From NCBI GenBank assembly GCA_027064305.1, contig JAMOPY010000033.1, forward strand, positions 1-37,592: 37,592 nt of DNA, written 5' to 3'. Below are positions 21,361-28,157 of this stretch, piece by piece (within the stretch, counting starts at the first letter, position 1; each line of letters begins with the position of its first letter). Below the pieces are notes generated by a model. The model was not told the DNA's origin and searched no databases. It saw only the letters and a list, made by a program, of their open reading frames with translations. The position numbers and the translations under genes were made by a program. This stretch comes from Methanobacteriota archaeon. Its GTDB lineage: Archaea > JAADCQ01 > Methanopyri > Methanopyrales > Methanopyraceae.

Positions 21361-21438
21361 GCCGCGGCAGCTCAGCCTGGTTAGAGCGCGGGACTTGTAA
21401 TCCCGTGGCCCCGGGTTCAAATCCCGGCCGCGGCTCCA
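21361..21438 (+). tRNA. tRNA-Thr(UGU), gene-encoded C8, CCA encoded
   Basis: GCCGCGG-CA-GCTC..GAGC-G-CGGGA-CT-TGT-AA-TCCCG-TGGCC-CCGGG-TTCAAAT-CCCGG-CCGCGGC-T-CCA; TATA-like TTAAGTA at 21323-21329. Confidence 0.96.
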
Positions 21439-26075: not shown

Positions 26076-26867
26076 GACGTACCTCGACCACACCGGATCG
26101 TAATCTCCCGGCCGGAGCTCCAACCGGCGCCCCGCGCTCACCACCACCCTACCCCCCTCGCTCGCCGCCCGGCCGAGCAGGTCCCCCAGCTCCAGCGACG
26201 CCAGCCCGGCCACCGTACCCCTCAACCCACTCGGCGGGCGCTCAACCCTCGGCCGGGGAAGCTCCTTCACCGCCTCCTCCACCTCAAGACCGATCGAGCG
26301 GACCCGATACCCCACGGCGCGCGCCAGCAGGACCGAAACGTACGCCCGCTCCGCCAGCTCGTACGTGCACCGCAGCAGCTCCCCCACCAGCTCCGGGGGC
26401 AGGCACGCCCGCTCGCCGAGCAGCCTGGAGAGCGCCCGGGACAGGCACCGGGCCACGAACCGATCGTCCCGAACCTCCCGACAGCCCAGCGAGACGACGG
26501 GCAGGAACACCCGCACCACCCCGTCCAGATCCGCCGCCAGCAGGGCCCGAACGCCCCTCCTCAGCATCTCGCGAACGACCTCCGCGGCGTCCTCGGAAAG
26601 CCGCTCCGACCGCTCCAGCAGCCGGTCCAGGCCGCTCCACACCCGATCGTCCACGCTGAGGTACTCCGACAGCTCGGCCGGGTGGACCGAGACGGGGTGC
26701 CTCACGTTCACCGGCATCCCGATCGACACGCTCGCGGCCAGGGACACGGCCCGGTAGAACCGGCGCGAGGGCTTCACGGGCGGGCCGAGCCACGCCCACT
26801 CCCGCTCCGGCCTCACCTCCGGAGACACCCGACCCCGGTCGGAGTGCAGCGCGAGGATGAGGGTCAC
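26058..26867 (-). CDS. Hypothetical protein
   Basis: 269-aa ORF with normal composition; TTAAAA about 40 bp upstream. Confidence 0.6.
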   Translation of the reverse strand: MTLILALHSDRGRVSPEVRPEREWAWLGPPVKPSRRFYRAVSLAASVSIGMPVNVRHPVSVHPAELSEYLSVDDRVWSGLDRLLERSERLSEDAAEVVREMLRRGVRALLAADLDGVVRVFLPVVSLGCREVRDDRFVARCLSRALSRLLGERACLPPELVGELLRCTYELAERAYVSVLLARAVGYRVRSIGLEVEEAVKELPRPRVERPPSGLRGTVAGLASLELGDLLGRAASEGGRVVVSAGRRLELRPGDYDPVWSRYVSRVCL

Positions 26868-26983
26868 CGGGCACCCCCTGACCCGGTGGGATCCCGGGAG
26901 TCAAATTTTAAGCCGGTCGAACGACGGCGTGACCCGGCCCAGGAGGCCTCGTGTGCAACGGGATGAACCGCCCGGGGACCGCC

Positions 26984-27057
26984 GCCCGGTCCTCCCCGCC
27001 CGCGGGGGACGCGGCCGGGCCGTGGATGACCCGACGGGCCGGCTACCGCCGGGCACA
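26984..27057 (+). ncRNA. H/ACA guide hairpin 1
   Basis: Lower stem gcccgg/ccgggc, pocket tcctcccc + cggctaccg, upper stem gcccgcggg/cccgacgggc, K-turn (GA...gatGA) closed by cgcggc/gccgtg, ACA 15 nt from the upper stem. Confidence 0.8.
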
Positions 27058-27066
27058 GCCGATGAA

Positions 27067-27154
27067 GGGCCCGGGTGGGACGACGGCGGGACAACCCTCC
27101 CACGAGCGCGGCCGCCTCGCCCGACGATGACCCGCCGTTTCACCCGGGCCCACA
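27067..27154 (+). ncRNA. H/ACA-like hairpin 2, probably in the same transcript as hairpin 1
   Basis: gggcccgggtg/cacccgggccc and acggcggg/cccgccgt stems, GA...GATGA K-turn-like motif, ACA at 27152-27154. Confidence 0.6.
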
Positions 27155-27167
27155 GGGGGTCTCACCC

Positions 27168-28157
27168 ATCGCGAGGGTCCCATTCGGTCACTCCGGAACC
27201 ATCGCGGCCAAGACCACCCTGATTCTAGCCCTAGCGATCGCCGCGTCCGCCACCGCGGGGGTCGCCCTCTACCACCTTTATCACGCCGGCAAGAGGCCCG
27301 AGAGCAGGCTGGACCGGCTGTCCCACGCCCGGTGCATCGTGGTCATCAGCGAGGACCTCTGCGGCGGCTCCCGGTACACCGTCCAGCTCGCGGAGCGGCT
27401 CCGCCGGAAGGGCGTCCCCATGACCTTCGCCGTCCCCGCGTGGGAGGCCTACGCGTACCCGGACCGGATGCGGAAGCTGCGCGAGCTGGGCTGCGACCTC
27501 ATCAACCACGCCAACGACGGGGGCGCCTCGTACGCGTTCCTCGGCCACCCGGGCAAGCTGGCCGGGCTACCGGAGGAGGAGCAGCGCAAGATCATCCACA
27601 CCGCCCAAGAGCAGATCCGAAAGGCGACCGGGTTCCGACCCGACGCCTACCGGGCCCCCGGCCTGGCGATCGACGAGAACACGTACCGGGCCCTGATCCG
27701 GGAGGGCATCTGGATCGACTCCAGCAAGATCTTCACGCACCCGGGGACCCGAGGCGCCCCGCGGTGGATCAAGGTCGACGGGCATCGGATCCTGGAGATC
27801 CCGATCGCCTGCTACACCGAGTGGGAGTACGACCGGCACGGTCGACCCGTCAGGCCCAAGTTCCTGTGCTCGTTCGCCGACGACCTGTTCGTGCAACCGA
27901 AGATCCGGTCCCACCAGCCCGAGCGGGCGCTGGAGAACCTCAAGCGCGGGTTCGACCAGTACTACCGGCACGGCCGGCCCGGGCGACCGACCGTGTTCGT
28001 CGTGCTCTTCCACGAGCACATCACGGCCAACCCGAAGTACTGGTGGATCATCCTCGAGTTCGTCGACTACGCCCGCCGGCACCCCGGGGTGGAGTTCGCC
28101 ACGATCGACGAGGTCGCCCAGCTGGCCAAGCGGGGCCAGCGGTTCACCGCCTTCTAG
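27168..28157 (+). CDS. Membrane-anchored polysaccharide deacetylase (NodB-like); start uncertain
   Basis: Hydrophobic anchor LILALAIAASATAGVALY, then MTFAV, LINH, YRAPG, DSS, VLFHE; ORF open from 27075. Confidence 0.72.
   Translation: MARVPFGHSGTIAAKTTLILALAIAASATAGVALYHLYHAGKRPESRLDRLSHARCIVVISEDLCGGSRYTVQLAERLRRKGVPMTFAVPAWEAYAYPDRMRKLRELGCDLINHANDGGASYAFLGHPGKLAGLPEEEQRKIIHTAQEQIRKATGFRPDAYRAPGLAIDENTYRALIREGIWIDSSKIFTHPGTRGAPRWIKVDGHRILEIPIACYTEWEYDRHGRPVRPKFLCSFADDLFVQPKIRSHQPERALENLKRGFDQYYRHGRPGRPTVFVVLFHEHITANPKYWWIILEFVDYARRHPGVEFATIDEVAQLAKRGQRFTAF

Follow-up and report, generated by a model that had tools for sequence, protein, structure and literature searches.

A predicted two-hairpin box H/ACA guide RNA gene conserved in Methanopyrus, with two candidate pseudouridylation sites in 16S rRNA

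The 37,592-nucleotide (nt) contig JAMOPY010000033.1 of a Methanopyraceae archaeon (assembly GCA_027064305.1), here called the window, contains at 26984-27154 (+) an element that is best explained, at a probability of roughly 60%, as part of a gene for a box H/ACA guide small RNA (sRNA). The predicted RNA of ~220 nt consists of a 5' leader and two H/ACA hairpins and is kept across the genus Methanopyrus. The window is contig C33 of an archaeal assembly of 1.21 Mb in 50 contigs (89% complete, 69.8% G+C). The sequence 26984-27154 forms two hairpin/internal-loop/hairpin units (26984-27057 and 27067-27154). In each, the 3' side of the upper stem carries a GAUGA kink-turn (K-turn) strand, and an ACA immediately follows the lower stem. 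On these sequence features the element is very probably a genuine H/ACA sRNA. Its two predicted products are less certain. Pseudouridylation of U1489 in 16S ribosomal RNA (rRNA) by hairpin 1 is slightly favored by the pairing and its conservation, and for U1359 and hairpin 2 the chances appear evenly balanced. A preliminary description, made from the letters of the window, had proposed a two-hairpin H/ACA RNA here, and both units, their ACA boxes and their K-turn strands proved to be as described and conserved in all five congeners.

Structure and conservation of the element

The lower stem of hairpin 1 joins 26984-26990 to 27048-27054 through six G-C pairs and one U.G pair, and two of these seven pairs show double changes across the genus. 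Its 5' pocket strand (26991-26997) ends in the guide UCCCC (26993-26997), while the 3' guide CGGCUACC occupies 27040-27047. UCCCC, the CGGCUAC of the 3' guide and the ACA box (27055-27057) are invariant in all six genomes of the genus. The upper part (26998-27039), delimited from sequence, fold and the six-genome structure, starts with a GA stem of nine base pairs (bp; 26998-27006/27030-27039) in which A27034 is bulged and next to which G27007 is unpaired. It continues into a standard K-turn with the sheared pairs G27008.A27029 and A27009.G27028 and a 3-nt bulge (G27025-A27026-U27027), capped by an apical stem-loop (27010-27024; stem 27010-27014/27020-27024). The G27006-C27030 pair at the top of the GA stem is replaced by A-U in genome G001.

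Hairpin 2 is built on the same plan. Nine G-C pairs that never vary make up its lower stem (27067-27075/27143-27151), and its 5' guide GGGACG (27077-27082) as well as its ACA box (27152-27154) are invariant in the six genomes. The 3' guide is UUCA + CC (27139-27144), of which CC are lower-stem bases. Between the two guides lies the upper part (27083-27138), an eight-bp stem (27083-27090/27131-27138) with a long variable apex, where the K-turn strand GAUGA (27126-27130) faces G27090-A27091. As read from the sequence, this K-turn is imperfect, its sheared-pair register clashing with the Watson-Crick register. Double changes occur at 27083-27138 (A-U, G.U, G-C) and 27086-27135 (G-C, A-U).

A similarity search found the orthologous locus in each of the five other genomes of the genus (G001 to G005) at 73-93% identity. 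This lineage, with six genomes, is the sole one of its phylum in the genome set searched, and the 35 other archaeal genomes in the same search yielded nothing comparable (best E 0.056, pieces of ~22 nt). In the six-genome alignment both ACA boxes, the GAUGA K-turn strands and the pocket strands are invariant, with the exception of the hairpin 2 3' guide, which reads UUC(A/G) in five of the six genomes and UUA in G003. Variation is found in the apices, the flanks and part of the stem pairs. A structure drawn by hand is paired in 99.5% of 214 cells and has changes on both sides in five of its 37 pairs; its covariation score was reached by one of 500 column shuffles, and slid controls were only 33-56% paired. 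Folding energy gave z-scores of -1.65 for the whole element, -1.41 for hairpin 1 and -5.13 for hairpin 2, and in a genome of ~70% G+C it is informative for hairpin 2 and uninformative for the other two. Apparent paralogs of hairpin 2 that BLAST reported in the window's own genome were rejected, being on reading G+C-rich coding sequence and not H/ACA hairpins. In G005 part of the element occurs a second time at the end of another contig (G005:C130:22153-22251), 94% identical to hairpin 2 with its 3' flank; this copy probably reflects redundancy of the assembly or variation between strains, and not paralogy.

Complementarity to 16S rRNA and proposed function

The 16S rRNA gene of the same organism (G000:C40:11209-12725) ends in ...AACAAGGUAGCCGUAGGGGAACCUGCGGCUGGAUCACCUCC, so the target proposed for hairpin 1 exists; this is the archaeal 3' sequence that the preliminary description had quoted. 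Each pocket was scanned against every U of this 16S rRNA and of the 23S rRNAs of the closest relatives, as the 23S gene was not found in the window's own assembly. In G002 the 16S and 23S genes are not adjacent (516776-518289 and 585271-588370), and there is no 16S gene in the 3 kb upstream of the 23S gene.

The best site for hairpin 1 is 16S U1489 within GGUAGCCG-UA-GGGGA. Its 3' guide pairs with GGUAGCCG (1481-1488) and UCCCC with GGGGA (1491-1495), giving 8+5 = 13 Watson-Crick bp, and the match to helix 45 that had been predicted from the window is thereby found in the organism's own rRNA. The next best site reaches 5+5 bp on 23S rRNA (AGCCG-UC-GGGGA). For hairpin 2, with the pocket defined by the covarying A27083-U27138 as closing pair, the best site is 16S U1359 within GGUGAA-UA-CGUCCC, where the 5' guide pairs with CGUCCC (1361-1366) and the 3' guide with (GG)UGAA (1353-1358), a total of 6+6 bp with two lower-stem pairs opened and 4+6 bp otherwise. 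The GAUGA and ACA signature that hairpin 2 had been said to share with hairpin 1 is thus accompanied by a fitting site, where the preliminary description had left the target unassigned. The G002 version of this guide pairs with the G002 16S rRNA by 4+7 bp. Three other definitions of the hairpin 2 pocket (closing pairs 27082-27139, 27084-27137 and 27085-27136) were discarded, with at most 8 bp on rRNA.

Both pockets comply with bipartite pairing around an unpaired 5'-UN-3', which in each case is U-A of the 16S rRNA. With both strands of the 1.21-Mb assembly searched, each target pattern was found a single time, in the 16S gene, and both targets are identical in the four available 16S genes of the genus. 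When the guides were shuffled with their composition preserved and only Watson-Crick pairs were counted, the score was reached in 3 of 3000 shuffles for hairpin 1 and in 0 of 3000 for hairpin 2.

The same scan was calibrated on published Methanopyrus kandleri hairpins detected by RNA-seq (Su et al., 2013, PMC3695527), where it returned 11 bp for Nr3 and 13 bp for Nr6-1 on 16S rRNA. The Nr3 pocket, read in G002, fits 16S U8 (CUCCGG-UU-GAUCC, 6+5 bp) and the first pocket of Nr6 fits 16S U12 (5+8 bp). In Sulfolobus islandicus the U8 site is modified through sR109 (PMC11077068).

The two target positions lie close to the decoding helix. Counted from the loop adenines A1518/A1519 and the anchors C1400-C1407, U1489 is equivalent to Escherichia coli U1512 in helix 45, the same assignment as in the preliminary description, and U1359 to E. 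coli U1376. U1489 directly follows the CCG of that helix and is separated from the GGAA loop by 3 bp. U1359 belongs to the segment GGUGAAUACGU that precedes helix 44, immediately 5' of the strand leading into that helix. The CCG of helix 45 is reported to carry a conserved acetylcytidine in Thermococcus kodakarensis and human (PMC11928934).

The genome encodes the partner proteins of an H/ACA particle above curated cut-offs: Cbf5 (TIGR00425, 481 bits), Nop10 (PF04135, 84.5 bits) and Gar1 (PF04410, 30.9 bits). We infer transcription, particle assembly and both pseudouridylations, the single steps being drawn by analogy with solved archaeal H/ACA particles. Transcription would start from an A/T box upstream of the leader. 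L7Ae would bind the K-turn of each hairpin, and Cbf5-Nop10-Gar1 the lower stem and ACA of each. Each internal loop would open and pair with the nascent 16S rRNA, the unpaired U of which would be isomerized. Hairpin 1 is predicted to pair with GGUAGCCG and GGGGA, leaving U-A unpaired and presenting U1489 to Cbf5, and hairpin 2 with (GG)UGAA and CGUCCC, presenting U1359. The predicted hairpin 1 duplex takes in the 5' strand of helix 45 as well as its loop, with the A that corresponds to A1518. N6,N6-dimethyl-adenosine cannot form this guide pair. Because hairpin 1 must pair with the A1518-equivalent A, the guide would act before helix 45 folds and before A1518 is dimethylated.

Mapped archaeal 16S pseudouridines are reported at 27, 891, 922 and 1017 in Pyrococcus abyssi (Muller et al., 2008, PMC2377435), at 8, 58, 477, 747, 930, 943, 1009 and 1162 in S. 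islandicus (PMC11077068) and at 1004 and 1167 in Archaeoglobus fulgidus (Toffano-Nioche et al., 2015, PMC4652768). The equivalents of U1512 and U1376 are absent from these three maps, as far as the available parts of the papers give them, in keeping with the earlier remark that the U1512 equivalent is not known as a common archaeal site. Among the papers listed by a literature search, none reports, by title or abstract, a pseudouridine in archaeal 16S helix 45. The element thus yields two cheaply testable predictions at universally conserved 16S positions that are unmodified in those maps. If they were confirmed, helix 45 would carry three kinds of modification within ten nucleotides, and the order of late small-subunit maturation would become directly testable.

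Pocket geometry and rival explanations

The geometry of the pockets has to be weighed against what is known of productive folds. According to the available text of Muller et al. (2008, PMC2377435), the target U and the ACA are 14-15 nt apart in active Pyrococcus pockets, and the 3' guide has the greatest influence. Productive folds are given as 10/5/9 or 10/6/9, that is, layers of the GA stem, 3' guide and lower stem (Toffano-Nioche et al., 2015, PMC4652768), and the same two papers describe GA stems of 8, 9 or 11 layers and ACA distances of 13 or 17 nt as mostly inactive. The 10-layer rule was drawn from Pyrococcus, Archaeoglobus and Haloferax data (PMC4652768). We applied the distance rule as 14-15 nt from the closing pair of the upper stem to the ACA.

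Several results weigh against the reading as a two-site pseudouridylation guide, and the first concern these distances. The GA stem of hairpin 1, nine bp and two sheared pairs, amounts to 11 layers in all six genomes, with one bulged and one unpaired base in addition. The count stays at 11 even in G004, where a K-loop takes the place of the apical stem. Ten layers are obtained only if the closing G-C or G.U pair is opened, and the ACA then lies 16 nt away. Hairpin 1 thus reads 11/8/7; its ACA distance of 15 nt and its strong 8-bp 3' guide fit the known rules. Of the canonical geometry ascribed to it in the preliminary description, the distance and the standard K-turn hold, and the layer count and the two unpaired bases depart from it. 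Our H/ACA finder script allows one bulge only, so hairpin 1 was parsed by hand.

Hairpin 2 in the window's own genome has 13 nt to the ACA if A27083-U27138 is paired (14 nt if this pair opens). It reads 10/4/9 or 9/5/9 in the window, G005 and G003, with nine or ten layers depending on the register. In G002, G001 and G004, where a base is added after GAUGA and another in the 3' guide, the distance is 14 nt as in the canonical 10/5/9 fold. Its K-turn, moreover, is without a clean second sheared pair, and in G003 its 3' guide pairs by just 2-4 bp. From K-turn to ACA the spacing is 25 nt in hairpin 1 (24 in G004) and 21 nt in hairpin 2 (23 in G002); six published M. kandleri hairpins parsed by script have 22-24 nt, and the script reads ten layers in four of these six. 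As parsed from sequence, each of the two pockets misses the known range by one step in the window's own genome.

The same side of the balance holds four further points. The fit of hairpin 2 was found after trying four pocket definitions, and once G.U pairs are admitted the shuffle controls lose strength, the scores being reached in 16 of 3000 shuffles for hairpin 1 and in 40 of 3000 for hairpin 2. The alignment comprises six closely related sequences with few covariation counts, so that the covariation support is modest but consistent. Neither the six H/ACA sRNAs nor the other small RNAs in the available Table S1 of Su et al. (2013, PMC3695527) include the orthologous site G002:C1:262628-262842 (minus strand). 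A search of sequencing runs with the locus gave five matches, all of them DNA contigs, one possibly from the source sample itself, and none an RNA run.

On the other hand, Haloferax guides assembled with Methanocaldococcus proteins show that atypical distances can be productive (Majumder et al., 2020, PMC7075261). Since the geometry is off by one and atypical distances can nevertheless work, we keep pseudouridylation as the most likely function, at moderate odds. The case tests how strict the rule of ten layers and 14-15 nt is outside Thermococcales.

It is also possible, though unlikely, that the element encodes a real H/ACA-type ribonucleoprotein (RNP) of which one or both pockets bind 16S rRNA without modifying it, acting, while the small subunit goes through late maturation, as an assembly chaperone that holds the flanks of helix 44 in the manner of snR30/U17. 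In that eukaryotic H/ACA small nucleolar RNA the internal loop pairs with small-subunit pre-rRNA by the distal part of the pocket and no modification results; the pairing here is of the modifying type with an unpaired U, and the likeness is a functional analogy for the chaperone role only. Pockets one step off the productive Pyrococcus geometry would suit such a role. So would the position of the targets (1353-1366 and 1481-1495 of the own 16S rRNA), which directly flank helix 44 on its 5' and 3' sides if its borders are where we take them to be. The conserved leader adds 8-10 nt of complementarity: its GUGUGCAA is complementary to UUGCACAC (1373-1380) of the own 16S rRNA, by 8 bp in the window, G005, G004 and G003 and by 10 bp in G002 and G001, at a site 7 nt 3' of the hairpin 2 target duplex and 14 nt 3' of the target U. 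This match is weak evidence and may be due to chance, as the 8-mer occurs 15 times in the assembly. Against a mere clamp, both pockets leave the dinucleotide U-A unpaired and keep ACA and K-turn, as a modifying guide requires, and a clamp would not need the U; the tolerance of archaeal particles for atypical distances (PMC7075261) also speaks for a modifying guide.

A clamp could also be combined with modification. A rather unlikely reading, but one worth stating, is that a single RNP holds the decoding helix at both ends, the hairpin 2 pocket and the leader pairing 5' of helix 44 and hairpin 1 pairing with the final base of helix 44 and on into helix 45. The two-hairpin particle would then tether the distant flanks of the ~100-nt helix 44 in nascent 16S rRNA at ~100°C, and maturation would proceed from guide binding and pseudouridylation through release and helix 45 folding to the dimethylation of the adenines in its loop. 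On this view the pseudouridines would serve as a lock or simply arise as a by-product, and the off-by-one geometry would be tuned for slow turnover instead of being a defect.

That the element is a genuine H/ACA guide with other physiological targets, such as the 23S site AGCCG-UC-GGGGA for hairpin 1, a transfer RNA (tRNA) or another small RNA, seems improbable. Hairpin 1 does fit the 23S rRNA of relatives by 5+5 bp, at U1434 in G005, U1433 in G001 and U1435 in G002, with the own 23S gene absent from the assembly, and one archaeal pocket is reported to guide up to three sites (PMC2377435). The 16S match of hairpin 1 is longer, however (13 vs 10 bp), and the 16S matches consist of Watson-Crick pairs throughout and have no second copy in the genome; any second target would come on top of the 16S one and not replace it. 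The program aragorn found 26 tRNA genes in the own assembly.

Least of all can the element be explained without an RNA gene, as chance G+C-rich inverted repeats or as a leader that acts in cis on the polysaccharide deacetylase gene downstream: this is very improbable because, although folding energy is not distinctive for hairpin 1 or the whole element at 70% G+C and an open reading frame (ORF) starting with GTG at 27075 crosses hairpin 2 into that gene, the intergenic conservation of 73-93% is accompanied by compensatory changes and by indels whose lengths are not divisible by three, the GTG is lost in four of the five relatives through deletion of T27076, the deacetylase gene adjoins the locus only in G003 among the five relatives (not in G002 or G001), and two independent, unique complementarities to 16S rRNA are unexpected by chance.

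Genomic setting and comparison with known H/ACA RNAs

The element lies in the intergenic region between a divergent ORF of 269 amino acids, which gave no match in a Pfam search and adjoins the locus in four of the five relatives, and the ORF of the deacetylase-like protein. Upstream of the element, the A/T-rich AAATTTTAAG at 26903-26912 (+), with T/T/A positions that are invariant in the six-genome alignment, is likely an archaeal TATA box, a role assigned from its position only. It stands ~30 nt 5' of the conserved 45-nt leader (26938-26983, +), and this placement would put the start of the transcript at ~26932-26938. Invariant columns of the leader include AGGAGG (26941-26946), GUGUGCAA (26951-26958) and a GAUGA motif (26959-26970) that sits in a mini-hairpin of only 2-3 bp. 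The leader shows no significant fold by itself (z = +0.6).

The two hairpins are joined by the linker GCCGAUGAA (27058-27066, +), which immediately precedes hairpin 2, looks like a C box or a K-turn strand and is invariant in all six genomes. Partner strands for this linker and for the leader GAUGA were looked for by hand and none was found. A third H/ACA or C/D unit made of the two GAUGA motifs was rejected, as inspection by hand showed neither a D box (CUGA) nor an ACA following the leader, and the mini-hairpin has just 2-3 bp. A K-turn of AGGAGGC (26941-26947) with GCCGAUGA (27058-27065) would need bases that are used in the lower stem of hairpin 2, and the long-range pairing of the leader GUGU with the second ACA that RNAalifold suggested would bury the ACA; both were dismissed. 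Published M. kandleri C/D sRNAs have C boxes that the linker resembles: in the available Table S1 of Su et al., GCCGATGAAGA opens several of the rows (PMC3695527).

Downstream, the ORF 27075-28157 (+) encodes a polysaccharide-deacetylase-like protein (PF01522, E 3e-11) with an apparent N-terminal membrane segment. By manual codon reading, the sole in-frame ATG, GTG or TTG start for this segment is the GTG at 27075 inside hairpin 2, the next in-frame GTG being at 27339, and a gene caller would probably annotate a coding sequence across the sRNA. In Rfam, a stretch just upstream of the A/T box (26850-26907, +) resembles the C/D box family sR53, without significance (11.5 bits, E 5.5). The stretch has GGAUGAG followed by CUGA 17 nt later, overlaps the start of the divergent ORF and is possibly notable given the 126 C/D sRNAs reported for M. 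kandleri (PMC3695527). Elsewhere in the window, at 21361-21435 (+), lies a tRNA gene (Rfam, 66.2 bits) with the anticodon loop CUUGUAA and an anticodon read as UGU.

The Rfam search that the preliminary description had suggested assigned the element to no family: the locus had no match when the whole window was searched at gathering thresholds, nor when 26700-27400 was searched at E up to 10, besides the sR53-like stretch. RF00065 (snoR9) and RF00058 (HgcF) reached at most 16 bits anywhere in four genomes of the genus, which is noise only, and Rfam found no Methanopyrus H/ACA RNAs. Guides with the same target were sought with the exact pattern TCCCC-N(28-58)-CGGCTAC-N(7-9)-ACA, which misses other spacings. 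Within the phylum all six genomes match, at the orthologous locus. Among the 395 other archaeal genomes 59 had a match; none of the ~70 matches listed, read by eye, has a GAUGA K-turn with complementary stems, and a reversed-pattern control also matched many of these genomes.

Archaea have small sets of H/ACA guides, and these are poorly catalogued except in Pyrococcus, Sulfolobus and Haloferax. The closest known systems are the six H/ACA sRNAs, Nr1-Nr6, that Su, Tripp and Randau (2013) detected in M. kandleri by RNA-seq, with coordinates 356800, 576409, 720500, 1419098, 1500940 and 1618746 (PMC3695527, Supplementary Table S1). A 24-nt motif of Nr6 was found in G002 at its printed coordinate, so the coordinates of the paper can be read on that genome; it also occurs in the window's own genome, of the same genus, with one mismatch. 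The element predicted here resembles this set in its G+C-rich hairpins, its (C/G)GAUGA K-turn strands and its ACA right after the lower stem. It has two hairpins where those RNAs have one or two, its linker places GAUGA directly 5' of a lower stem as in Nr4 and Nr6 (PMC3695527), and the 11-13 bp of the Nr pockets to 16S rRNA are comparable to its own. It differs from them in guide sequences and predicted targets and in its spacing of 25 and 21 nt as against 22-24 nt. The available table of Su et al. gives no pseudouridylation targets for Nr1-Nr6 (PMC3695527).

More distant are the Pyrococcus sRNAs Pab35/Pf6, Pab105/Pf3 and Pab40/Pf7, with two or three hairpins each, which share the hairpin/pocket/hairpin arrangement with ACA and a K-turn or K-loop in the upper stem (PMC2377435, PMC4652768). 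Like the predicted RNA, they are described with a bipartite guide around an unpaired UN, several hairpins per RNA and 14-15 nt to the ACA (15 in hairpin 1). Unlike it, they have a 10-layer GA stem, as against 11/8/7 and 10/4/9 or 9/5/9 here, and they show no sequence or Rfam relationship to it. Their 16S sites at 27, 891, 922 and 1017, as given in the available part of the study, include none in the 3' end region, where both present targets lie (PMC2377435). Haloferax volcanii sR-h45 likewise joins two H/ACA stem-loops in one RNA, each of which guides rRNA pseudouridylation, and by its description is set apart by 23S targets (1940, 1942 and 2605) from the 16S targets predicted here (PMC7075261). 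Compared with these systems, and judged by its sequence, we propose to regard the element as a seventh Methanopyrus H/ACA sRNA, of a known kind and with two new predicted 16S sites.

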